DNA of 24,000 nt from an uncultured Burkholderiaceae bacterium (GTDB lineage Bacteria; Pseudomonadota; Gammaproteobacteria; Burkholderiales; Burkholderiaceae): positions 61,550 through 85,549 of the forward strand of contig CBIHOQ010000016.1 in assembly GCA_966212065.1 (NCBI GenBank). Reading direction: 5' to 3'. This document shows, in pieces, positions 5,644 through 17,298 of this stretch. The translations under genes were made by a program, and so were the position numbers. The notes under the pieces were generated by a model. It was not told the origin of the DNA and did no database searches. It saw only the letters and a list, made by a program, of their open reading frames with translations. How positions within the stretch are numbered: the first letter of the stretch is position 1; every line of letters begins with the position of its first letter.

Positions 5644-5976
5644 ATGATCGTGACAGTCTTTAGATCGAGGTTGAATGCTGGCGCCCAAGAGGAATACACA
5701 CAGTGGGCGACGCGGATGAGTATCCTGGCCCGCGACGTGCCAGGCTATGTTTCCCACAAGGGCTTCACCGCCGAGGATGGCGAACGTGTAACCATTGTGG
5801 AATTCGAGTCCGAAGAGGCAATGCGCGCCTGGGCAAAGCATCCCGAACACGTCGAAGCCAAGAAAAAAGGGCGTAGCACCTTCTTTGCGGAATACCGGGT
5901 GCAGATCTGCGAGGTGGTGCGTGATACGGCGGATCGCAGCAAGCCTCACCGCGCTGCAAGCAAGGTCTCGAGATGA
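5644..5976 (+). CDS. Antibiotic-biosynthesis-monooxygenase (ABM) domain protein
   Basis: 110 aa. The sequence MIVTVFRSRLNAGAQEEYTQWATRMSILARDVPGYVSHKGFTAEDGERVTIVEFESEEAMRAWAKHPEHVEAKKKG follows the ferredoxin-like ABM pattern. A strong GGAGGA RBS sits 7-12 nt upstream. The last 31 nt overlap the convergent Lrp gene. Confidence 0.8.
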   Translation: MIVTVFRSRLNAGAQEEYTQWATRMSILARDVPGYVSHKGFTAEDGERVTIVEFESEEAMRAWAKHPEHVEAKKKGRSTFFAEYRVQICEVVRDTADRSKPHRAASKVSR

Positions 5977-6437
5977 TAGTGCGTCTTGACGATCGGCGAT
6001 TTGATGATGATGTAGCTGAAGTATTTCTCGATCCCGATGTCACGCTCCAGCAGCCCTTCCATCACGCTCTGATAGTGGGTGACGTTGCGCGTGACCAGTT
6101 TGAGCAGATAGTCGTAGCCGCCCGTCGCGTGGTGGCACTCCATGATCTCGTCGACGCCGCGAATGGCATCGACGAAGCGCGCTAAGTCTTCGCGACGATG
6201 ATCTGCGAGCGTGACCTTGGTAAACACCATCTGGAAGTCACCGAGCTTCTCGATCCGGAGCCGCGCGCCGTAGCCCGCAATGAACCCAGCCTTCTCGAGC
6301 CGCTTGACGCGCGTGAGGCACGGGCTCGCCGAGAGCCCGACGGCGTCGGCCAGTTCCACATTGGTAATGCGGCCGCGCTTCTGCAACTCGGTGAGAATGC
6401 GCAAGTCCATCCGGTCCAACGTGCAATCCGTTCTCAT
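5946..6437 (-). CDS. Lrp/AsnC-family transcriptional regulator
   Basis: The sequence LDRMDLRILTELQKRGRITNVELADAVGLSASPCLTRVKRLEKAGFIAGY is an AsnC-type HTH, followed by a RAM domain. The track ORF starts at 6491. I prefer Met19 (complement of 6435-6437), which is preceded by AAGGAGGAGAGG. Confidence 0.88.
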   Translation of the reverse strand: MRTDCTLDRMDLRILTELQKRGRITNVELADAVGLSASPCLTRVKRLEKAGFIAGYGARLRIEKLGDFQMVFTKVTLADHRREDLARFVDAIRGVDEIMECHHATGGYDYLLKLVTRNVTHYQSVMEGLLERDIGIEKYFSYIIIKSPIVKTHYHLETLLAAR

Positions 6438-6776
6438 CCTCTCCTCCTTCGTCCGGTGAGGTAGCCTCCAGGTGAGCGCTTTCGCGTCCACTTCAATCTA
6501 GATAGCCACCCCACCCCTTAGTACGACGATACGGCGATCTTGCTGTTTGTACGCGGTGTTCTGCACCGTGCGATTTCATACAGCAGGACCTGCCGCGAAT
6601 CTGCCAAAAAACGCTTCGACTTTTGTCTTTTGCACCGATCAATTCGGCATCGGCGCGACGCTTTCCAGATTAAATTTGAAGTACCGACATCGCTATCGGT
6701 GCTTGCGCGAAATGGCTTCCAGCAAGCCCCCCATTCAAGAATCCCTCGGGATTCGTCACTCATCGAGACTGAAGAC

Positions 6777-7445
6777 ATGATCGACTTCGAGCCGAAATTC
6801 ATCACGTTCGATTGCTACGGCACCCTCGTCAATTTCCGTATGGCCGACCTGGCGCGGGACATCTACGGCAACCGCCTTCGCGGCGACGCGATGGACAACT
6901 TCGTCAAGCTGTTCGCCGCCTATCGTCGCGACGAAGTGCTCGGCGCTTGGAAGCCCTTCCGCGAGGTCGTCATCCATGCCGTGCGCCGCACCTGCGAGCG
7001 CACCGGCGTGCCGTTCATCGAAGCCGAGGCCGAACAGTTTTACCTGGCCGTGCCGACCTGGGGCCCGCACCCGGACGTCCCGGAAGGGCTCTCCCGCCTC
7101 GCGAAGAAATACAAGCTGGTCGGGCTGAGCAACGCGGACAACGCGCAAATCATGAGCAATATCGAGAAGCTCGGCGCGCCGTTCCATGCCGTCATCACGG
7201 CCGAAGACGCCGGCGCCTATAAGCCGCGCATGCAAGGCTTCGAATACATGTTCAAGAAGCTCGACGTGCAGCCTCACGAAATCCTCCACGTTTCGTCGAG
7301 CCCGCGCTACGACCTGATGACCGCGCACGACCTCGGCATTGTCCACAAGGCTCACGTGCTCCGCGGCCATGAACCGGAAGCGCCGGAATATGGGTATACG
7401 CCCGTCAGAAGCATCATCGAGCTGGCCGAACAGCTCGGCTTGTAA
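6777..7445 (+). CDS. HAD-superfamily hydrolase, type II haloacid dehalogenase-like
   Basis: HAD motif I FDCYGTL immediately follows the start MIDFEPKFITFDCYGTLVNF. Further motifs are GLSNADN, AYKP and HVSSSPRYDLMTAHDLG. The track ORF (6540..7445) is over-extended across the AT-rich intergenic region; with ATG 6777 the protein is 222 aa. Confidence 0.82.
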   Translation: MIDFEPKFITFDCYGTLVNFRMADLARDIYGNRLRGDAMDNFVKLFAAYRRDEVLGAWKPFREVVIHAVRRTCERTGVPFIEAEAEQFYLAVPTWGPHPDVPEGLSRLAKKYKLVGLSNADNAQIMSNIEKLGAPFHAVITAEDAGAYKPRMQGFEYMFKKLDVQPHEILHVSSSPRYDLMTAHDLGIVHKAHVLRGHEPEAPEYGYTPVRSIIELAEQLGL

Positions 7446-7640
7446 GCCATTCGCGCCGCCCTGGCCCCCGCGTTCGACGCCGGCCAGGCGCGCACATCGC
7501 GCTGTTCGACTGACGCCTCGATTCAGGCCGATGGCGCCGCGTAACCCTATCGATGACAGCGCCGATACCTAGTGCCGGGGTTGCCTCGATCTTCCACAGT
7601 GGTGCACGCATGCCGGTACTCCAACCTAACTTGCGGAAAC

Positions 7641-7653
7641 ATTGTAGAACAAT
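7641..7653. promoter_or_regulatory. GntR/FadR-type operator candidate 1 (ATTGT-AGA-ACAAT)
   Basis: Perfect 5-bp inverted repeat with a 3-nt spacer. TTGTAGAACAA fits the FadR-subfamily consensus T-N-GT-N3-AC-N-A. It lies 99 nt upstream of ATG 7752. Confidence 0.5.
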
Positions 7654-7705
7654 AACAGGGAAACAAGCCCGGAGAAAGGCGTCGTTTTCGGCTTTACATT
7701 CCACG

Positions 7706-7718
7706 ATTGTCCGACAAT
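7706..7718. promoter_or_regulatory. GntR/FadR-type operator candidate 2 (ATTGT-CCG-ACAAT)
   Basis: Same half-sites as site 1, and TTGTCCGACAA also fits T-N-GT-N3-AC-N-A. It lies 34 nt upstream of ATG 7752. It contains the TTG (7707) that the ORF track used as a start. Confidence 0.5.
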
Positions 7719-7751
7719 AATAGCGCCTACCATCGCTTCCCCCGCTCGTCC

Positions 7752-10301
7752 ATGTCCACACATTCCACGCTTAGCGTCGCATCCTCTCCGCAGGCAACGG
7801 GGCTCAATGCCCTGTTAACTAGCGGCCTGTCGGTCAGCTTTCCCCGTCTGGATACCGCTGATGCGATTGCGATCACACGCCGCGTTTACGGCATAGATGG
7901 GGCAGCTACGAGGTTTTCGACCGAGAAGGACGACACCTTTCGTATCGACGCCTGCGACGGCGCGCGGTACGTCTTGAAGATCTCGAACCCCGGCGAGACA
8001 GCTGAAGAGCTCGACTTGCAGGTGGCCGCGATGCGGCACGTCGCGCTCGTCGCGCCCCGGTTGCCGGTGTCGCGCGTGCTGCCAAGTATTGATGGACAAT
8101 TTATCGTGCCGCTCGCGTTAGCCTCATCCACGCAGCCGCACCGCACGGCGAGGCTCTACAGCTACCTCGAAGGCACGCCGCTCGACACACTGCACCCTAG
8201 CGCACGCAATCGATACGAGATCGGTGAGGTGCTGGCGCAACTGCGCCTGGCCATGGCCGACTTCCGGCATCCGCACGAGCACCGGGTGCTGGCTTGGGAC
8301 GTGAAGCACTTGGCGAGTCTCGCGGGGTTGCAGGCCCATATCGCCGACCCGTTGCACCGCTCGCTGATCGAGCAGGCATTCGCGCGCTTTGCGGCGATCG
8401 AACCGGCCTTACGCCGCTGTCCGACGCAAGTCGTGCACAACGACTTCAACCGCTCGAACATCGTCGCCAACGCAGGCGGCCCGAACTTCGTCAGCGGCAT
8501 CATCGACTTTGGCGACACCGTGCATACGGCGGTAGCCATCGATGTCGCCACGGCGGTCATGAATCAATTCCCGCTCGACTTCGACGCCGACGGCTCGCAC
8601 GACCTGTTTGTCGAGGCGCGCGACCTGCTGCGCGGCTATCTCGCGCATGCCGAGCTCAGCGCTGACGAACTGCTGCTGATTCCGCACCTGGCGATGGCGC
8701 GCGTCGCGGCGCGGGCCTTACTGACTTCATGGCGCGCCATGCTGTTTCCGGAAAACGAGGCCTACATCCTGCGTTTCACTCGGCCGGGATGGGAGCATTT
8801 GCGCTGGTTCATGCAACGCGACCATGACACCGTTTCCCATGCCTTGCTTGAGTTCGTCCGCCGACCCACTCGCTCCACCTCTCTTGAGCCCTCTATGAAC
8901 GCCACCCCCACGCCCATGCCGCAGCCGCCCGTCCTCAATCAAGCCGTCGATACCGGCAAACCCGCCGACAGCCTGCGCGGCGACATGCCGAACGGCTTCA
9001 ATCCCTCGGAGATCTCCCACCTCGACGCCGCCACGCAACAACACATCGCGCGCCGCCTACGGCTGCTCAGTCCGTCGTATCGCTTGTTTTACGCCGAGCC
9101 GGTAAAGATTGTGCGCGGCGAGAAGGTCTATCTGTACGACGATGAGGGCAACGACTATCTCGACGCCTACAACAATGTCGTCTGCGTCGGGCATGCCAAT
9201 CCGCGCATTGTCGATGCTGTTACCCGTCAGCTCTCGACACTCTGCACGCATACGCGCTACATGCAGGAGCCGATCCTCGACTATGCAGAGGACCTGCTCT
9301 CGACCTTCAACACGTCGATCCGCGAAGGGCAGATGATGTTCACCTGCACGGGTTCCGAGGCCAACGACCTGGCCATGCGCATCGCGATGCAGTACACCGG
9401 CAAGACAGGCGTGATCGTGACCAGCGAGGCCTATCACGGCAACTCTCACATCACCTCGAGTTTTTCGCCGTCGCTGGGCCGCAAGGCCTTGCTGGGCCCC
9501 TACGTGCGCACGGTACCGGCCCCCGACTCATACCGGATGACGCCGTCCGAGATCGGTCAGCGCATGGCCGAGCAAGTCGCGCTGCAGATCGAGGACATCC
9601 GCCGTCACGGCGGCGGCCTGGCCGCCTTCATCGCCGATTCTTTCTTCTCGTCGGATGGCGTCTTCGCGCACCCGACCGATGTGCTGGCGCCGGTGGCCGA
9701 GGTGGTGCGCCGCGCCGGCGGACTGTTCATCGCGGATGAGGTGCAATCGGGCTTCGGGCGCGGCGGTACCCACATGTGGGGGCACGAGCGCCACGGTGTC
9801 GTGCCCGATATCGTCACGCTGGGCAAGCCGATGGGCAACGGCTACCCGGTAGCGGGTCTGGTCGCGCGCCCCGAGGTCGTCGCCGGCTTTGGCCGGGACA
9901 TGCGCTACTTCAACACCTTCGGCGGCAATTCGGTGGCGGTCGCTGCCGCGCAGGCTACGCTCGACGTGCTGCGCGACGACTATGTGCTCGATAACGTGCA
10001 GCGGGTCGGCGCGATCATGCTCGAGGGGTTGAATGCGCTGGCAAAGAAATACGAATGCATCGGCGATGTGCGCGGCACCGGTCTGTATTTCGGCGTCGAG
10101 ATGGTGCGTGATCGCGCGAAGAAGGACACCGACATCGCGACGGCGCTCAAGGTCGTTAATGGCCTGCGCCAGCGGCGCGTGCTGATTTCGGCAACGGGGC
10201 CGGACGCGAGCGTGCTGAAGATCCGACCGCCGCTGGTGTTCGCGGCCAAGGACGCGGACCGCTTGCTGACGGAACTGGACGCCGTGCTCGCCTCGCTCTA
10301 G
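7752..10301 (+). CDS. Bifunctional fusion: APH-family (hydroxylysine-kinase / homoserine-kinase II-like) phosphotransferase plus a class-III aminotransferase-fold PLP enzyme (phospho-lyase-like)
   Basis: All residue numbers use track-ORF numbering (start 7707). The N-terminal domain (residues ~40-385) has the kinase catalytic loop VHNDFNRSN (243-251) and IIDFGD (265-270). A Pro/Thr-rich linker follows (~386-440). The C-terminal domain has YNNVVCVGHANPRIV, GSEANDLAMRIA, ADEVQSGFGRGG and the PLP-lysine motif DIVTLGKPMGNGYPVAG (AAG at 9825-9827). I prefer the ATG at 7752 over the TTG at 7707. Confidence 0.88.
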   Translation: MSTHSTLSVASSPQATGLNALLTSGLSVSFPRLDTADAIAITRRVYGIDGAATRFSTEKDDTFRIDACDGARYVLKISNPGETAEELDLQVAAMRHVALVAPRLPVSRVLPSIDGQFIVPLALASSTQPHRTARLYSYLEGTPLDTLHPSARNRYEIGEVLAQLRLAMADFRHPHEHRVLAWDVKHLASLAGLQAHIADPLHRSLIEQAFARFAAIEPALRRCPTQVVHNDFNRSNIVANAGGPNFVSGIIDFGDTVHTAVAIDVATAVMNQFPLDFDADGSHDLFVEARDLLRGYLAHAELSADELLLIPHLAMARVAARALLTSWRAMLFPENEAYILRFTRPGWEHLRWFMQRDHDTVSHALLEFVRRPTRSTSLEPSMNATPTPMPQPPVLNQAVDTGKPADSLRGDMPNGFNPSEISHLDAATQQHIARRLRLLSPSYRLFYAEPVKIVRGEKVYLYDDEGNDYLDAYNNVVCVGHANPRIVDAVTRQLSTLCTHTRYMQEPILDYAEDLLSTFNTSIREGQMMFTCTGSEANDLAMRIAMQYTGKTGVIVTSEAYHGNSHITSSFSPSLGRKALLGPYVRTVPAPDSYRMTPSEIGQRMAEQVALQIEDIRRHGGGLAAFIADSFFSSDGVFAHPTDVLAPVAEVVRRAGGLFIADEVQSGFGRGGTHMWGHERHGVVPDIVTLGKPMGNGYPVAGLVARPEVVAGFGRDMRYFNTFGGNSVAVAAAQATLDVLRDDYVLDNVQRVGAIMLEGLNALAKKYECIGDVRGTGLYFGVEMVRDRAKKDTDIATALKVVNGLRQRRVLISATGPDASVLKIRPPLVFAAKDADRLLTELDAVLASL

Positions 10302-11125: not shown

Positions 11126-11617
11126 CTACTGAATGACCGTTCGTCCCGTGTGTCCGGAGGTCCAGCGGCGGCGCAGCCAGTGATCCACCGACAGCGTGCC
11201 CGCCCCGCGGCAGAGCAGCACGAGCAGCATCGCCGCCCACTGAATATGGGTCGGCCATGCCTGCGGGTAGACGAAGATCTCGATCACCGACGTCATGCCG
11301 AGCAGCACTAACGCCGCGGGCCGGGTCCCGAGCCCCAGCACGAGCAGAATGGGCGTGCTCAGTTCGATCGAGGTGCCGATATAAGCGGCGATCTCCGGCG
11401 GCAGCAGCGGCACCTTGTATTCATCGCGAAACAGCGCGAGCGCGGCGTCCCAGTTCGCGAGCTTGGCCATGGCGGAATTCCAGAAGACCGTCGCCACCGC
11501 GAGCCGCAGCGGGATCGCGAGCAGCCAATACGGCACTCGCTCTAGCCGCTTTGCGACGCGCAACAGCCGCGAGGGAACGGACGACGCATGGCGGTTGGTG
11601 GGTGTTAGGTCAGGCAT
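11126..11617 (-). CDS. DoxX-family membrane protein (fourth gene of the bufferin/gig-type operon)
   Basis: 163 aa from the ATG (complement of 11615-11617): MPDLTPTNRHASS...VPYWLLAIPLRLAVATVFWNSAMAKLANW...ELSTPILLVLGLGTRPAALVLLGMTSVIEIFVYPQAW, with four hydrophobic segments. The track ORF (to 11965) is over-extended in an Arg-rich frame across the upstream gene. It overlaps the upstream gene by 13 nt. Confidence 0.8.
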   Translation of the reverse strand: MPDLTPTNRHASSVPSRLLRVAKRLERVPYWLLAIPLRLAVATVFWNSAMAKLANWDAALALFRDEYKVPLLPPEIAAYIGTSIELSTPILLVLGLGTRPAALVLLGMTSVIEIFVYPQAWPTHIQWAAMLLVLLCRGAGTLSVDHWLRRRWTSGHTGRTVIQ

Positions 11618-12423
11618 GGCGATGATCCTCCAGAAGGAGATCCGGCGTCGGGCACCGACTCGGCATCGGCAAAGCATGCGCGCCCGAGCAGTAAGGCCAG
11701 AAGAGCGTACCCGTCCGTGCTTAGAGCGACAGACAGCGCGTCGCGAATCGCTTCGCCGGCAAAGAGTGCAGCAGCGATCCGGTACTCGCCATCGCCCAAG
11801 CGAAGGACCTCGACTCCTTCGGCCGTACGTTGCACGAGCAGGTGCACCGGACCATCGTCGAGTCGGATCGAATGCATCGCCGGGGCGTCCTGCTCGAGCA
11901 CCGCGCGCCAGATCGCATCGGCCGGAAAGGCGAAATGCGCGAGCCGTACCGCCGGATGCGGACACAGGCGCAGCGCGCCGAGCGCATCATCGTCAAGCAA
12001 TGCCAGACGTGGAAGGTCGAGTGTCGGGAGGGCCGGTGCATGCAACACGCTATTCACCTGCCACTCGAGATACGCGACACCGGCGAGATATGGCACCGAT
12101 GCTGTCTCCGGGAGTTGCGCGAGAAATGCGGGAAACGTCGCGCCATACTCGTCCAGCCATGCGCTATCCGGCGGCGATGCGTCGATGAAGCGTCGGACGG
12201 CTCCTTCAAAGCACTCCGCTCCAACGAGACGTTGCACGGCCGGAAACGCCAGGCGAATCGCATTCACCAGCACGCCGGTCGCCGTGTTGCGATAGATCGA
12301 CAGACGCGCAACGGGCGCGAGGCCGTCAGCCACGATCCACGCCTCGGCGTCTCCCCCCGCGCCGCGCAGATTTTCTCGAACCGCTCGCTGCAATTCAGCC
12401 AGCGTGGATGCGGGCGGGTTCAT
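11605..12423 (-). CDS. bufC: DUF2063-family protein (BufC/GigB-like partner of the DUF692 enzyme)
   Basis: The sequence LAELQRAVRENLRG...RLSIYRNTATGVLVNAIRLAFPAVQRLVGAECFEGAVRRFIDASPPDSAWLDEYGATFPAFLAQ...YLAGVAYLEWQVNSVLHAP carries the SIYRN / LxxxFP / YLxDxAxLEW pattern that I recognise for DUF2063. The start is at 12423 (MNPPAST) or 12453, overlapping the upstream gene by 29 or 59 nt. Confidence 0.78.
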   Translation of the reverse strand: MNPPASTLAELQRAVRENLRGAGGDAEAWIVADGLAPVARLSIYRNTATGVLVNAIRLAFPAVQRLVGAECFEGAVRRFIDASPPDSAWLDEYGATFPAFLAQLPETASVPYLAGVAYLEWQVNSVLHAPALPTLDLPRLALLDDDALGALRLCPHPAVRLAHFAFPADAIWRAVLEQDAPAMHSIRLDDGPVHLLVQRTAEGVEVLRLGDGEYRIAAALFAGEAIRDALSVALSTDGYALLALLLGRACFADAESVPDAGSPSGGSSPCLT

Positions 12424-13285
12424 ATCGAGCCGTCTCCAGTGCAAATTCTGCAATTGCCGCTTCCTGCATCAAGGTTTCCAGCGCCGGCACATCGGTGTCC
12501 CATTCGATCAGTGTCGGTACGGCGCCGAAACGGCGCAGCGCTTCGCGATACAGGGTCCAGACCTCGGGCGCGACGCGAGAGCCGTGATCGTCGATGCGCA
12601 GCGTGTGCCCGTCCTCGAACTGCCTGACGCTGTGACCCGCAAGATGAATCTCGCCGATCGACGCCGGCGGCAGCGCAGCGAGATAGGCCCGCGGATCCCA
12701 GCCGTGATTGCAGGCGCTGACGTAGATGTTGTTGACATCGCAAAGCAGGCCGCATCCTGTTCGTCGCGTGATTTCCGCGAGGAATTCCCATTCCGGAATG
12801 GTCGAGTGGACAAACTGCAGGTACGTGGACGGGTTTTCCACCAGAATCGGCCGCCCGAGTGCGTCCTGAACCTGGTCCATATGTCGGCACATGACGTCCA
12901 GCGCTTCCTCGGTCATCGGCAATGGCAGCAGATCGGCCAGATAGGTTCCGCCCACCGCACTCCACGCCACGTGCTCGGACACCAGATCGGGCTCGAAACG
13001 TCGCACCGTTGCGCATATGCGAGCCAGATGCGCGGCGTCCAGCCCATCGGGGCTGCCGAGGGACAGGCCCACGCCATGCAGCGACAGCGGGTAGTCGCGG
13101 CGGATGGCGTCCAGATATTGCGACGCCGTTCCGCCCCCCATGTAGTTCTCGGTGTGTACCTCGAACCAAGGGACAGCCGGCTTCTCATCAAGCACTGCCT
13201 GATGGTGCCGGAAGCGCAGGCCAACGCCCGCCCGCGCGGGGACTGGCCGTGGCGCCGCGCAATGCGATGGCGCGGATACGTTCAT
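12395..13285 (-). CDS. bufB: DUF692 / MbnB-like multinuclear non-heme iron oxidative enzyme (MNIO), BufB/GigA-like
   Basis: 296 aa from the ATG (complement of 13283-13285). Motifs: GVGLRFRHH, WFEVHTENYM, HGVGLSLGS, SEHVAWS, ILVENPSTY, LCDVNNIYVSA, HLAGH, LIEWDTD. These form the TIM-barrel metal-ligand pattern of DUF692. The track ORF (to 13456) is over-extended into the precursor gene. Confidence 0.88.
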   Translation of the reverse strand: MNVSAPSHCAAPRPVPARAGVGLRFRHHQAVLDEKPAVPWFEVHTENYMGGGTASQYLDAIRRDYPLSLHGVGLSLGSPDGLDAAHLARICATVRRFEPDLVSEHVAWSAVGGTYLADLLPLPMTEEALDVMCRHMDQVQDALGRPILVENPSTYLQFVHSTIPEWEFLAEITRRTGCGLLCDVNNIYVSACNHGWDPRAYLAALPPASIGEIHLAGHSVRQFEDGHTLRIDDHGSRVAPEVWTLYREALRRFGAVPTLIEWDTDVPALETLMQEAAIAEFALETARYEPARIHAG

Positions 13286-13299
13286 GGCGGAACCCGTCT

Positions 13300-13620
13300 T
13301 CAGCTGGCCTTGAGTTTGCCGCCCGCGATCTTGCTGCAGTCGCCGGCCGGCAGCAGCACGAAGGACTTCGCATCGCGAGCCTGCGTGGACTGGCCAGCGC
13401 ACGAATGGGCCCCTTCGGCGCAGTCGTTCTTGGCTACCGCGTTCACGCCGTAGCATTTTTCGAGGTGGTTTTGCGCCATCCTGGCCATGTTGTCTTTGAC
13501 GATCTGGGGCATATTGCTCATATCCTTCATGCCCTGCGCTTGCCCCGGGACGGCTTGCATGGCGAGCGCGAGCCCGACGGCGGCGGATAGCGAGGAAATG
13601 GCCGAAGCGGATTTGCTCAT
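13300..13620 (-). CDS. bufA: Secreted DUF2282 Cys-containing RiPP precursor (bufferin BufA1 / GigP-like)
   Basis: 106 aa from the ATG (complement of 13618-13620), preceded by an AGGAGA RBS. It has a Sec-type signal (MSKSASAISSLSAAVGLALAMQA), a Met-rich tract (MKDMSNMPQIVKDNMARMAQNH) and a core EKCYGVNAVAKNDCAEGAHSCAGQSTQARDAKSFVLLPAGDCSKIAGG. The four Cys are at residues 56, 67, 74 and 95. Only 14 nt separate it from the DUF692 gene. Confidence 0.85.
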   Translation of the reverse strand: MSKSASAISSLSAAVGLALAMQAVPGQAQGMKDMSNMPQIVKDNMARMAQNHLEKCYGVNAVAKNDCAEGAHSCAGQSTQARDAKSFVLLPAGDCSKIAGGKLKAS

Positions 13621-13669: not shown

Positions 13670-13695
13670 TTCGCTCCGTCGCAGCCAAAGGTTAC
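13670..13695 (-). promoter_or_regulatory. ECF (SigF/ECF16-type) promoter candidate GTAACC-N16-CGAA driving the precursor operon
   Basis: The minus strand reads GTAACC tttggctgcgacggag CGAA. GTAACC is the complement of 13690-13695, the spacer is exactly 16 nt, and CGAA is the complement of 13670-13673. The element ends 49 nt upstream of the bufA ATG. As I recall it, this matches the promoter consensus published for Caulobacter SigF. Confidence 0.6.
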
Positions 13696-13757: not shown

Positions 13758-14411
13758 ATGACTGACGAGAAAGGCCATCGGCGACGCCGCATCCATCTGG
13801 TCCGGCCGGCACCCGGACCGGAACGCGGCGTCGGCGCGCAGGCCGCAACCCGGGAGGACGGATCGCCCGACTGGTCGATGCTGATGGCATGTGCGCAGAT
13901 CGGCGACAAGGACGCGTACCGGCGCTTGCTCGAGAGCATCGCGCCGTACCTGAGGCGCCTCGCTGCGCGCCGCGGCGTGCATCCGGATGCCGTCGAAGAC
14001 GTCGTTCAGGACATTCTCGCGACGATCCACCAGGTGCGTCATACGTATGCGCCCGAGCGGCCGTTCGGGCCCTGGCTGGTGTCGATCGCGAGCCGGCGCA
14101 TCGTCGATGCATTGCGGCGGCAGGGGCGCGCGGTATCGCGCGAAGTGCCGCTCGATCCGGAACATGAAACCTTGCAGGGTGACGGAGCGAATCTTATGGA
14201 AGAAGCGGCGGATGCGCGCGTGCTGCGCGAAGTGCTCGCCCAGTTACCGCCAGGTCAGCGCGAGGCGATCCGGATGCTGAAGCTCGAGGAGATGTCGTTG
14301 AAGGAAGCGGCCGTGGCGACCGGCATGACCCTAGGCGCGTTGAAGGCCGCGGTCCATCGCGGGCTCAAGGCGTTGCGCAGGTTGTTGGAAAAGCAGGGGA
14401 ACCGGCAATGA
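13758..14411 (+). CDS. ECF-type RNA polymerase sigma-70 factor (SigF/RpoQ-like)
   Basis: Region 2: DAYRRLLESIAPYLRRLAARRGVHPDAVEDVVQDILATIHQVRHTY...FGPWLVSIASRRIVDALRR. Region 4: LPPGQREAIRMLKLEEMSLKEAAVATGMTLGALKAAVHRGLKALRRLL. An AAGAGGA RBS ends 10 nt upstream of ATG 13758. An alternative internal start at 13878 would remove a 40-aa N-terminal extension. Confidence 0.88.
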   Translation: MTDEKGHRRRRIHLVRPAPGPERGVGAQAATREDGSPDWSMLMACAQIGDKDAYRRLLESIAPYLRRLAARRGVHPDAVEDVVQDILATIHQVRHTYAPERPFGPWLVSIASRRIVDALRRQGRAVSREVPLDPEHETLQGDGANLMEEAADARVLREVLAQLPPGQREAIRMLKLEEMSLKEAAVATGMTLGALKAAVHRGLKALRRLLEKQGNRQ

Positions 14412-15067
14412 GGCGTTCGACGTCCGAACTGATCGAATCGCTGGTGGCCGACAGTGCGCCGGTGCGTCCGCTGCGTCGCCCGCTTTGGCGGGCGACGGGC
14501 TGGCTGATGTTTGCGGCGCTGCTGCTGCTATCCGTCGCCGTCGCCCAGGGCTTGCGCCCGGATTTGCCGCTCAAGCTGCACGAGCGCGTGTTCCTCACGG
14601 GTGTCGTGACTGCCGCGGCAACGGGCGGCCTGGCCGCCGTCGCCGCGTTTATCGCCAGCGTACCGGGGCGCTCGCTGCGCTGGTTGTTGCTGCCGCTACC
14701 GGCGCTGCTCGTTTGGACGTCCATGATCGGCTACGGTTGCCTGACGAACTGGATCGAGATCGGTCCCGACGGTATCTCGCCCGGCGAAACCGCGCGCTGC
14801 TTCGCGACGCTCGTGCTGACCAGTGTGCCGCTTTCGCTGACGTTGTTAGTCATGCTGCGCCATGTCGCACGCCTCGCGCCCGTGCCGGTGGCGATGACGG
14901 GGGGGCTTGCCGTCGCCGCGATGACCGCCGTGGCGTTGTCGCTGTTCCATCCTCTCGACGCGACGGTAATGATCCTTGCGTGGAATCTCGGTTTGACGGT
15001 CGTCCTGTTGATCGGTAGCGCATGCTACGGCCCGCGATTGTTCCACTGGGTCGAATCGCATTCGTGA
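14408..15067 (+). CDS. nrsF: DUF1109 / NrsF-family membrane anti-sigma factor
   Basis: 219 aa, starting in an ATGA overlap with the sigma gene stop. The N-terminus MRRSTSELIESLVADSAPVRPL resembles the DUF1109 start, and about six hydrophobic TM segments follow. Cys residues sit in predicted loops (GYGCLTNW, ETARCF). Confidence 0.78.
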   Translation: MRRSTSELIESLVADSAPVRPLRRPLWRATGWLMFAALLLLSVAVAQGLRPDLPLKLHERVFLTGVVTAAATGGLAAVAAFIASVPGRSLRWLLLPLPALLVWTSMIGYGCLTNWIEIGPDGISPGETARCFATLVLTSVPLSLTLLVMLRHVARLAPVPVAMTGGLAVAAMTAVALSLFHPLDATVMILAWNLGLTVVLLIGSACYGPRLFHWVESHS

Positions 15068-15101: not shown

Positions 15102-15137
15102 TGTAAAGTACGCTACCTATGTGTAGTGTATTTTACA
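15102..15137. promoter_or_regulatory. Imperfect 15-bp inverted repeat in the AT-rich nrsF-chrB gap (candidate ChrB operator or RNA hairpin)
   Basis: TGTAAAGTACGCTAC (15102-15116), a 6-nt spacer (CTATGT), then GTAGTGTATTTTACA (15123-15137). 13 of 15 positions are complementary. The right arm ends on the A of the preferred chrB ATG. Confidence 0.35.
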
Positions 15138-16117
15138 TGACGACATTAACCACCTGGTCTGTCCTCGTCCTGACGTTCCCAACCGAGAACGCCACTGCGC
15201 GCATGCGGGCATGGCGGGCGCTGAAAGCGAAGGGGTGCGCCGTCCTGCGTGACGGCATCTATCTATTGCCGCATACCGTCGAGCGTGAGGACATGCTGCG
15301 CGAACTCGCTGCCAGCATCGATGATGCCGGCGGTACCGCGCATCTGCTGCGGGCGCAAAGTCTGAACTCGTCGCAGGAAGCAGACTTTCGCGCACTGTTC
15401 GATCGGAACGACGATTACGCGACCTTTGTCTCGGCGTTGGGAATCGCGCGGAAAACGCTGGGAGGCCAGTCACCGGCAGAGGTCACCCGCCTGCTGCGTC
15501 GCCTGCGCAAGGACTATGACGCGATCCGGCTGATCGACTATTTCCCGGGCGCGGCATCGACCGAGGCCGAAGTGGCCTGGGAAGACTTCCTGGCGCTCGC
15601 GGATACGGTCCTGTCGCCGGGCGAGCCGCATGCGGCTGAGCGGGTTATCCGGCGCCTGCAGCGCGACGACTATCAGGCACGGACGTGGGCGACCCGGCAA
15701 CGGCTATGGGTCGATCGCGCCGCGAGCGCCTGGCTGATCCGCCGCTTCATCGATCCGCAGGCGCGCTTCGTGTGGCTCGTGTCGCCGAAGGCCTGCCCGC
15801 AGGAGGCGCTTGGCTTCGACTTCGACGGCGCCGCCTTTACGCATGTGGGCGAGCGCGTGACGTTCGAGGTGCTGGTCGTGAGCTTCGGTCTCGATGACGA
15901 CGCGGCGCTTCTTCGGCTCGGCGAAATGGTGCATGCGTTGGATGTCGGCGGCACGCCGGTGCCCGAGGCGATTGGTTTTGAGGCGGTGATGGCCGGCATG
16001 CGGCAACGCGCGTTGGACGACGATCAACTGCTCGAGGAGATAGGTCGCGTGTTGGATTCAATCTACGCACACTTTGCGGTGAGCACAAAAAACGGCAACG
16101 CAGGGGGCCGGCCATGA
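15137..16117 (+). CDS. chrB: Chromate resistance regulator/sensor protein ChrB
   Basis: N-terminal WSVLVLTFPTENATARMRAWRALKAKGCAVLRDGIYLLP (ChrB N-domain pattern). C-terminal WVDRAASAWLIRRFIDPQARFVWL...GFDFDGAAFTHVGERVTFEVL (ChrB C-domain pattern). It lies directly upstream of chrA, with an ATGA overlap. The start is ATG 15137 or 15119. Confidence 0.85.
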   Translation: MTTLTTWSVLVLTFPTENATARMRAWRALKAKGCAVLRDGIYLLPHTVEREDMLRELAASIDDAGGTAHLLRAQSLNSSQEADFRALFDRNDDYATFVSALGIARKTLGGQSPAEVTRLLRRLRKDYDAIRLIDYFPGAASTEAEVAWEDFLALADTVLSPGEPHAAERVIRRLQRDDYQARTWATRQRLWVDRAASAWLIRRFIDPQARFVWLVSPKACPQEALGFDFDGAAFTHVGERVTFEVLVVSFGLDDDAALLRLGEMVHALDVGGTPVPEAIGFEAVMAGMRQRALDDDQLLEEIGRVLDSIYAHFAVSTKNGNAGGRP

Positions 16118-17298
16118 ACACCACGACGGCGACCCAACCCGGCTACACGCTCGGCCAGCTGGCCCTTTACATGCTGCGGCTCGGAGCCTTCGGTTTTGGC
16201 GGCCCGGTGGCGCTCGTCGGCTATATGCACCGCGACCTCGTCGAGCGCCGGGGCTGGATCAGCGAACAGGACTACAAGGAGGGGCTGGCGCTGGCTCAAA
16301 TGATGCCTGGGCCGCTTGCCGCGCAACTCGGCATTTATCTCGGTTACGTACATTACCGCGTTGTTGGCGCGACGCTGGCGAGTATCGCCTTTGTATTGCC
16401 TTCATTCCTGATGGTCGTCGCGCTGGGTTGGGCCTATGCCCGGTTTGGCGGCCTGCCCTGGATGCAGGCGGTCTTCTACGGCGTCGGTGCCGCGGTGGTC
16501 GGAATCATTGCGATGAGCGCCTACAAGCTGACTAGAAAGACCGTCGGCACAGACAGGCTGCTGTGGGCGATATTCCTGACGCTCGCGGCCGTGACCGTTG
16601 CCACCGAATCCGAAATCGCGTGGCTGTTTATCGCGGGGGGCCTGCTCAACTGGTTCTGGCGGGCGCCGCCGAAATGGCTACACAAGGGCGGACTGAATGC
16701 GCTTGCGATGACGCAGACAGCGGCTTTGAGCGGCGTTTTCAGCGGTATCGACCTATCTTTGCTCGGCCAGATCGGCGCTTTTTTCGCCAAGGCCGGCGCG
16801 TTTGTGTTCGGCTCGGGACTCGCGATCGTGCCGTTTCTCTACGGTGGCGTGGTGACCGAACACCACTGGCTCAACGACAAGCAATTCGTCGATGCCGTGG
16901 CTGTGGCGATGATCACACCGGGACCGGTCGTCATCACGGTCGGGTTCATCGGTTATCTCGTCGCCGGATTTTCGGGGGCCTGCGTCGCCGCGCTCGGCAC
17001 CTTCCTGCCTTGCTATCTGTTCACGGTGCTGCCGGCACCGTACTTCAAGAAATACGGCAGGCTGCCCGCCGTCAAAGCGTTCGTCGACGGCATCACGGCT
17101 GCGGCGGTCGGGGCCATTACCGGCTCAGTGATTGTCATCGCACGAAGGTCCATCGTCGACTGGCCGACCATCGCACTCGTCCTTGTGACGGTCGTGCTGC
17201 TCTGGCGCTTCAAGAAACTCCAGGAGCCGGTGATCGTCGTCGCGGCGGCCCTGTTCGGTCTTGTTGTCTATCCGCTCATTCATTCTCACGCTATCTAA
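16114..17298 (+). CDS. chrA: Chromate ion transporter ChrA (CHR family)
   Basis: 394 aa, with the duplicated CHR-domain architecture. First half: FGGPVALVGYMHRDLVERRGWISEQDYKEGLALAQMMPGPLAAQL. Second half: VFGSGLAIVPFLYGGVVTEHHWLNDKQFVDAVAVAMITPGPVVITVGFIGY. Confidence 0.92.
   Translation: MNTTTATQPGYTLGQLALYMLRLGAFGFGGPVALVGYMHRDLVERRGWISEQDYKEGLALAQMMPGPLAAQLGIYLGYVHYRVVGATLASIAFVLPSFLMVVALGWAYARFGGLPWMQAVFYGVGAAVVGIIAMSAYKLTRKTVGTDRLLWAIFLTLAAVTVATESEIAWLFIAGGLLNWFWRAPPKWLHKGGLNALAMTQTAALSGVFSGIDLSLLGQIGAFFAKAGAFVFGSGLAIVPFLYGGVVTEHHWLNDKQFVDAVAVAMITPGPVVITVGFIGYLVAGFSGACVAALGTFLPCYLFTVLPAPYFKKYGRLPAVKAFVDGITAAAVGAITGSVIVIARRSIVDWPTIALVLVTVVLLWRFKKLQEPVIVVAAALFGLVVYPLIHSHAI

Follow-up and report, generated by a model that had tools for sequence, protein, structure and literature searches.

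A methionine-rich extension of a Burkholderiaceae bufferin precursor as a candidate docking helix and copper(I)-capturing arm

The DNA analysed here (the window, 24,000 nucleotides from an uncultured Burkholderiaceae bacterium) carries in full a bufferin-1 (gig-type) cluster of the kind known from Caulobacter and Cupriavidus (PMC11626156, PMC10304878). Bufferins, first described in 2024, have been treated as 1:1 copper chelators whose chemistry lies wholly in two thiooxazoles. Our subject is a methionine-rich tract that lies ahead of the modified core in the precursor peptide encoded by bufA1, the first gene of this cluster.

The bufferin cluster and the anatomy of its precursor

bufA1 occupies 13300..13620 on the minus strand (stop codon included) and encodes a 106-residue DUF2282 bufferin precursor, as given by its translation and by PF10048, with AGGAG 7-8 nt 5′ of its ATG. 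Proteins 94% identical to the precursor carry the NCBI names BufA1/DUF2282, and the closest named relatives belong to the Burkholderia cepacia complex. On the same strand lie bufB (12395..13285), the MNIO (DUF692) maturase (NF050167 MNIO_BufB, 385.5 bits against a cut-off of 310; PF05114, E 2e-106), bufC (11605..12453), which encodes the DUF2063 partner (PF09836, 76.2 bits), and doxX (11126..11617), which encodes a bufD-like membrane protein (PF07681, 57.5 bits; start at MPDLT) and whose start at 11617 overlaps the end of bufC. The start of bufC is either TTG at 12453, with a 59-nt overlap with bufB, or ATG at 12423, with an overlap of about 29 nt; the ATG is likelier because relatives show the same bufB/bufC overlap of about 29 nt. 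A Pfam scan of the cluster genes found no protease gene. Divergent from bufA1, on the plus strand, are genes for an extracytoplasmic function (ECF) sigma factor (13758..14411; Sigma70_r2 and Sigma70_r4_2 matches) and an NrsF-family anti-sigma factor (14408..15067; PF06532, 93.3 bits). A candidate ECF/SigF-type promoter lies 5′ of bufA1 (13670..13695, minus strand) and is the sole exact match in the window to GTAACC-N16-CGAA, which we take to be the SigF consensus.

The tract itself bears out the sequence-only reading that drew attention to it. Positions 13465-13530 (minus strand) translate exactly to MKDMSNMPQIVKDNMARMAQNH, residues 31-52 of the precursor, with five Met and one His in 22 residues, the Met arranged as MxxMxxM (31/34/37) and MxxM (45/48). 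Its placement between the signal peptide and the DUF2282 core also stands, as the Pfam core match begins at residue 54. PF10048 matches residues 54-103 at 72.2 bits (gathering cut-off 22.4), and the NCBIfam models give only a sub-threshold BufA2 match (18 bits against a cut-off of 60). The core (residues 54-106; 13303..13461, minus strand) contains Cys56, which is invariant, and Cys67, Cys74 and Cys95, each at least 90% conserved in an alignment of 149 sequences; AlphaFold2 (AF2), run on that alignment, predicts strands at residues 53-57 and 86-91.

From signal peptide to core, the extension measures 25 residues and falls into two parts, delimited from the AF2 model and the homologs. Residues 29-37 (QGMKDMSNM, containing the MxxMxxM motif; 13510..13536, minus strand) are predicted to be floppy, and residues 38-53 (PQIVKDNMARMAQNHL; 13462..13509, minus strand) to form a conserved helix that carries the two invariant methionines, M45 and M48. 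The AF2 model has a mean predicted local distance difference test score (pLDDT) of 77.5, with values below 50 for residues 19-31 and a mean of 67 for residues 31-40. Its helix spans residues 39-51 (mean pLDDT of 88 for residues 41-50) and continues straight into strand 1 (53-57), with V41, M45, M48, A49 and H52 on one helical stripe. Searches of the PDB found no match either to the AF2 model of the precursor by Foldseek (best E 6.8) or to the precursor sequence, and the empty sequence search means that there is no solved bufferin on which to map the methionines.

The precursor begins with a putative Sec signal peptide (residues 1-28; 13537..13620, minus strand), in which a Lys-containing N-region is followed by a hydrophobic region (8-24) and a P-x-Q-A|Q site. 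Among 107 homologs (defined below), P25 is retained in 106, A28 in all and Q29 in 106; position 26 is always small (G/A/V/S/T), and position 21 is always hydrophobic, which places residue 21 within the hydrophobic region. This pattern of residue conservation fits a hydrophobic region that runs to residue 24, a helix breaker at P25 and a cut at A28|Q29. An alternative AXA-type site, ALA|M, would cut at A20|M21. Since the tract is downstream of both possible signal-peptidase sites, it should stay on the exported peptide, and we consider its retention on the mature peptide likely. Caulobacter bufferins are cut only at the (predicted) signal-peptidase site (PMC11626156).

In composition the tract is unusual, not extreme, and conservation argues more strongly that it is real. 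Met accounts for 2.37% of residues in the open reading frames (ORFs) of the source genome, in which 371 of 789,352 windows of 22 residues, in 48 of 2,855 ORFs, contain at least five Met; the chance of such a window in a 106-residue protein is about 1-4%. At least four Met in the equivalent 20 residues occur in 6 of 514 signal-peptide-like proteins of the same genome. For conservation we took the 120 closest database clusters, of which 107 are 106 residues long and 75-95% identical, from Burkholderia, Paraburkholderia, Cupriavidus, Pandoraea, Polaromonas, Glaciimonas and Noviherbaspirillum; the database search found 2,683 homologs in all. M45 and M48 are each present in all 107 homologs, M34 in 102, M37 in 96 and M31 in 91. 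M31, M34 and M37 are each replaced by T or A in some homologs, with all three present in 77, and the N-terminal half also occurs in 103-residue deletion forms (GMSNPPQ) and in fully Met-free forms (QGAGNPPQ, AADPPQ). P38, V41, K42, D43, N44, M45, M48 and L53 show almost no variation or none, and the polar helix residues K42, D43, N44 and R47, also near-invariant, are as conserved as the methionines. The motif PQ[IV]VKDNMAR[M/A/V] persists in representatives clustered at 50% identity or less. The tract's histidine, which the sequence-only reading had counted along with the methionines, does not share this conservation: H52 is replaced by Lys in 77 of the 107, which rules out, as a general feature, a Met2His site completed by His52.

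Predicted docking on BufC

We modelled the precursor with its putative partners. The BufC+BufA pair model scored 0.71 and all three controls scored 0.00; in the calibration of the modelling tool this mark was reached by 55 of 80 solved complexes and by 3 of 110 mismatched pairs, and we read the result as supporting binding, not showing it. On the BufA side, the predicted interface comprises residues 8-19, 21-22, 37-38, 40-42, 44-45, 47-48, 51-53, 55 and 89-91. It thus consists of the signal-peptide hydrophobic region and the helix, includes M37, and leaves residues 23-36 outside, as does a three-chain model with BufB that is weighed below.

According to published work, a portion of the core peptide has a share in recognition (PMC11626156), and the signal peptide belongs, on preliminary results, to the BufB-BufC recognition sequence (PMC12452194). 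The interface of the pair model agrees with both statements and fits the near-invariance of K42, D43, N44 and R47. The suggestion that the tract is a recognition segment for the DUF2063 partner is thereby supported for its helix half (residues 37-53, on the strength of the pair model and its controls) and not for residues 23-36, which make no contact.

The long form and methionines before the core

Canonical DUF2282 precursors were expected to pass nearly directly from the signal peptide to the EKCYG core, and this expectation holds for a paralog in the source genome and for most sampled BufA1. The paralog (contig C44) has 81 residues, in which the signal peptide is followed by A-D-M and then EKCYG, and it aligns with the long form from L53 onward only, at 46% identity. 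It belongs to a second bufferin-1 operon (locus L010 on contig C44 of G000, 5931-8347, minus strand) with a short bufA1, bufB, bufC and doxX. Within 4 kb of this operon we found no sigma/NrsF pair, and no GTAACC-N16-CGAA motif lies 5′ of the short paralog. The operon adjoins parA/parB-like genes, is divergent from a gene for an NADPH-dependent FMN reductase, and may be on a secondary replicon.

In an even sample of 401 genomes across the order, 165 had a DUF2282 match, and the tract was well covered by four (G000, G036, G197, G070). We defined the linker as running from the first charged residue after the signal-peptide hydrophobic stretch up to the core; among 56 BufA1 genes, read from about 45 loci sampled in the order, most have a linker of 1-6 residues. 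In other genomes of the order, single clusters at L049 (G117:C6, 5716-6831, minus strand), L025 (G084:C2, 5875-11095, plus strand) and L044 (5993-6713, minus strand) hold two or three short-form bufA1 genes, in tandem or close together. A different long linker, at L014 (G022:C2, 6516-6998, minus strand), contains seven Met (DKMMADKGMMKMDEASMIKMGEEAKKAGK) and is unalignable with the Burkholderia tract; its cluster has bufB, bufC, doxX, sigma and NrsF genes. Relative to this usual short form the tract is an insertion, and Met enrichment before the core is a family-wide trait.

The sequence-only reading raised covariation of the tract with operon type. A sigma/NrsF pair accompanies all six of the long Met-rich forms against a handful of the roughly 45 short ones, a contrast that represents at most two independent lineages and was obtained with an insensitive detection of NrsF. 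The short Buf1 of Caulobacter also lies near sigF-nrsF. For these three reasons we treat the link as an association only: the long form is associated with a sigma/NrsF-linked bufferin operon and is spread over the genera named above. The six-gene module, nrsF-sigma divergent from bufA-bufB-bufC-doxX, occurs with the tract form in Cupriavidus, on a Glaciimonas-type contig, in Noviherbaspirillum and in G036, and its flanking genes differ in each of these four genomes. At the source locus, chrB and chrA (chromate resistance; 15119-17298, plus strand) lie directly 3′ of nrsF on the same strand, an adjacency not found in four other tract-form loci (L007, L008, L009, L011). A copy of the promoter motif with one mismatch (GAAACC-N16-CGAA; 14166-14191, plus strand) lies inside the 3′ part of the sigma gene, has GACGGAGCGAA in common with the motif 5′ of bufA1, and might be an internal promoter for nrsF and chrBA.

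Beyond the tract clade, we searched 1.84 billion cluster representatives with the core only, so that the ranking was blind to the tract, and obtained 86 usable DUF2282 representatives outside the clade. Met accounts for 7.2% of their pre-core linker residues (68 of 948), against 1.3% in the cores and 2.57% in the matched segment of the 514 secreted-like proteins of the source genome (linkers against matched controls, odds ratio 2.9, Fisher P 3e-12), figures that describe a trend and are no formal test, as they ignore relatedness and use a crude ad hoc signal-peptide rule. Leu, Ile, Val and Phe each make up at most 2.5% of linker residues, a scarcity which argues that the methionines are not mere generic hydrophobicity. 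The Met-rich linkers are mutually unalignable: one is a lipoprotein form, and others are of the KTMAxMKK type or of the MGGGQM type rich in G, S and K. DKMDM-EKC is the sequence of many of the short linkers. Met nevertheless recurs at set distances from the core, with peaks at -1 (29%), -6 (19%) and -9 to -11 (15-21%) against 0-3% at -2, -4 and -5. Positions -1, -6 and -9 correspond to L53, M48 and M45 in the source precursor. In Caulobacter Buf1 the counterpart of position -1 is Thr9, a residue turned towards the thiooxazole loop and one of those whose nuclear magnetic resonance signals are lost on Cu(II) binding. BufA1 representatives of the same set also include some with Met-rich C-terminal tails, which, being at the other end, do not fit the role of an N-terminal leader.

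The contigs of the Met-rich representatives P0173, P0162 and P0197, from other clades, measure only 0.9-1.5 kb, too short for operon context. On a tree of 100 core domains, the Met-rich state changed 21 times, against 21-26 in ten label shuffles; with about 56 columns this tree is too weak for counting independent gains, and we did not use it as evidence.

A proposed docking helix and methionine arm, weighed against alternatives

Comparison with known systems sets the extension apart. Caulobacter vibrioides buf1ABCD (Leprevost et al. 2024, PMC11626156) shares the four-Cys DUF2282 core, a Sec signal peptide (putative in the source precursor), the order bufA-bufB (MNIO)-bufC (DUF2063)-doxX, a nearby SigF/NrsF-type pair and the strand 1 motif T/L-E-K-C-Y. 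Unlike the source precursor, Buf1 has no helix or Met cluster before its core: mature Buf1 has 8 residues before the equivalent of L53, against 24 in the source peptide, and it is described as binding one Cu through a 2N2S site, with no thioether contribution from an N-terminal arm. GigP (Rmet_4685) of Cupriavidus metallidurans CH34 (PMC10304878) is likewise a small periplasmic DUF2282 protein, with 4 Cys and 5 Met; its gold- and copper-induced gigPABT operon is divergent from genes for an ECF sigma factor (rpoQ) and an anti-sigma factor, like the source locus. GigP has 94 residues and a 72-residue mature peptide, unlike the 106-residue source precursor.

The nearest precedent for the methionines is of a different kind. 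Met motifs form Cu(I)/Ag(I) sites in CusF, CopC/PcoC, SilE/PcoE, the Met-rich regions of CopA/PcoA, and Ctr1. The source precursor resembles these proteins in spacing its methionines as MxxM and MxxMxxM, some in a disordered polar stretch and others on a single face of a helix, and in its periplasmic location and metal-stress regulon. Unlike them, it has no sequence homology to this group (Pfam finds DUF2282 only), its His is not conserved, and its motif is an appendage on a peptide that is ribosomally synthesized and modified post-translationally (RiPP) and whose main site is a thiooxazole pair. With RiPP leaders that bind RiPP recognition element (RRE)-type partners (PMC11626156, PMC12452194), the extension shares a helix that is N-terminal to the modified core and, in the model, sits on BufC. 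It differs from them in that the helix lies behind a putative Sec signal peptide, no protease is encoded and short BufA1 do without the helix; as no protease is encoded, this helix would be a leader that stays on the product.

We give a probability of roughly 45% to the reading that the tract stays on the mature peptide as an N-terminal extension and comprises two modules with separate functions, namely a docking helix and a Met arm that captures Cu(I). As conservation of the cleavage region suggests, signal peptidase would cut after A28 and the exported peptide would start at Q29 with the whole tract. Before export, according to the models, the hydrophobic part of the signal peptide and helix 38-53 would dock on BufC, which would present the core to BufB for conversion of Cys67 and Cys74 to thiooxazoles. 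In this way the helix would behave like an internal leader, though one that escapes cleavage. In the periplasm, composition, register and analogy suggest that MxxMxxM (31-37) and the helix Met stripe (M45, M48) could serve as thioether ligands. L53 occupies the position which, in Caulobacter Buf1, is turned towards the copper site. Cu(I), perhaps also Ag(I) or Au(I), would be captured by the methionines and handed on to the thiooxazole site, which binds far more tightly; alternatively, the methionines would let each peptide carry more than one metal.

The two functions first proposed for the tract, soft-metal capture and partner recognition, probably each hold in part, one for one half and one for the other. 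Docking of the precursor on BufC is the probable role of the helix, which is best explained as a docking and structural element; the strongest point for this is a natural long-form precursor at L012 (G070:C93, 5054-5359, plus strand) whose helix, PQVVKDNIARATAQKL, is without Met. By analogy with Met-motif proteins, the methionines probably give the exported peptide extra Cu(I) sites, and the Met clusters are best explained as serving the exported product, most simply through thioether capture of Cu(I). We place their role there because Met enrichment recurs in non-homologous segments, at both termini, with few other hydrophobic residues and in a fixed register near the copper-sensing position. 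The capture arm gains indirect support from a roughly three-fold Met enrichment of the linkers, from the register and from the C-terminal tails, and loses some to the existence of a Met-free relative of the helix. The exact ECF-type motif and the sigma/NrsF pair of the operon also speak for a metal role.

Several observations weigh against this two-module reading. The three-chain BufB+BufC+BufA model scored 0.62, with two partner-swap controls at 0.00 and the BufB swap at 0.56, and so lends no support; its contacts are nearly all on BufC, and M45 and M48 are not among them. Several lineages have no N-half Met at all. M48 is replaced by Ala or Val in several 50%-identity representatives, and the L012 precursor, whose gene abuts the end of its contig, carries Ile and Ala in place of M45 and M48 and no N-half Met, so that thioethers are not needed for such a helix to exist. 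Its amphipathicity in the source precursor is weak, with a hydrophobic moment that is not significant (reached by 1,397 of 5,000 shuffles, 28%), and the linker enrichment carries the statistical limits given above. Finally, armless Buf1 binds Cu(I) 1:1 at about 7e-20 M, and for that reason a Met arm may add capacity, speed or metal range, not affinity.

Much of the same evidence can be read without any metal. It is possible, if doubtful in our view, that the helix serves only recognition, through BufC-BufB docking, or packs against the core and stabilises it, and that its methionines are ordinary flexible hydrophobic residues while those of the N-terminal half drift. Such a role would account for the pair model, in which the signal peptide and residues 37-53 sit on BufC (0.71 against 0.00), for polar residues conserved as well as the methionines, for the natural Met-free helix of L012, for Ala or Val in place of M48, and for the 103-residue N-half deletion variants. 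It leaves unexplained the family-wide Met enrichment in non-homologous linkers poor in Leu, Ile, Val and Phe, the fixed register and the Met-rich C-terminal tails. Residues 23-36, moreover, contact nothing in either model, yet M34 is retained in 102 of 107 homologs, and short-form BufA1 is matured without such a helix (PMC11626156).

We regard a redox role as improbable. Surface methionines could act as sacrificial oxidant sinks or as redox sensors and so shield the oxidation-sensitive thiooxazole and disulfide site when copper drives oxidative stress; methionine sulfoxide reductases of the periplasm would repair them. Both the flexible polar contexts of the Met clusters at either end of BufA1 and the presence of DoxX in the operon would suit this, a DoxX homologue elsewhere protecting against oxidative or sulphur stress (cited in PMC12452194). 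The genes scanned next to the operon, however, include no msr gene, and a fixed register fits a defined site better than a diffuse sink.

Little also speaks for removal of the tract as part of an extended signal or pro-peptide, cut during or after export. Many RiPP leaders are cut off, and residues 19-31 have low AF2 confidence, which would be compatible with such a cut. Against it, the only AXA-type sites, at residues 20 and 28, precede the tract, and P25, A28 and Q29 are near-invariant; the charged K32, D33, K42 and D43 could not belong to the hydrophobic region of a signal peptide; the helix runs on into strand 1 without a break; the cluster is without a protease gene; and the Caulobacter bufferins are cut at the signal-peptidase site only (PMC11626156). 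That the Met cluster is a neutral quirk of a single lineage is very improbable: although clusters as dense occur in 48 of 2,855 ORFs of the source genome and the Met-rich state is scattered on the (weak) core tree, M45 and M48 persist in 107 of 107 homologs from several genera and the enrichment recurs in unrelated linkers and tails.

A bolder form of the two-module reading is conceivable, and we hold it only tentatively. The long form would represent an undescribed bufferin subfamily linked to ECF sigma/NrsF, in which an uncleaved internal leader helix, set between Sec signal peptide and core, first docks on BufC and after export serves again, with the flexible MxxMxxM arm, as an antenna or lid of thioethers above the thiooxazole site. 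Such a peptide might bind more than one soft metal ion or choose differently between Cu(I), Ag(I) and Au(I), and Met-rich appendages at either end would be a recurrent, selected tuning of bufferin capacity.

The word “methionine” is absent from PMC11626156, PMC12452194 and the 2025 captophorin preprint, and occurs in PMC10304878 only within a reference title. The finding is incremental and does not amount to a system of a new kind. Burkholderia, Paraburkholderia and Cupriavidus, in which the long form is common, have drawn study for their metal resistance and for opportunistic infection. In the tract there is a concrete candidate for what BufB-BufC recognise in Sec-signal precursors that have no classical leader and, if the two-module reading is true, part of the bufferin family would have extra metal-handling capacity or a mechanism for handing metal over to the main site.

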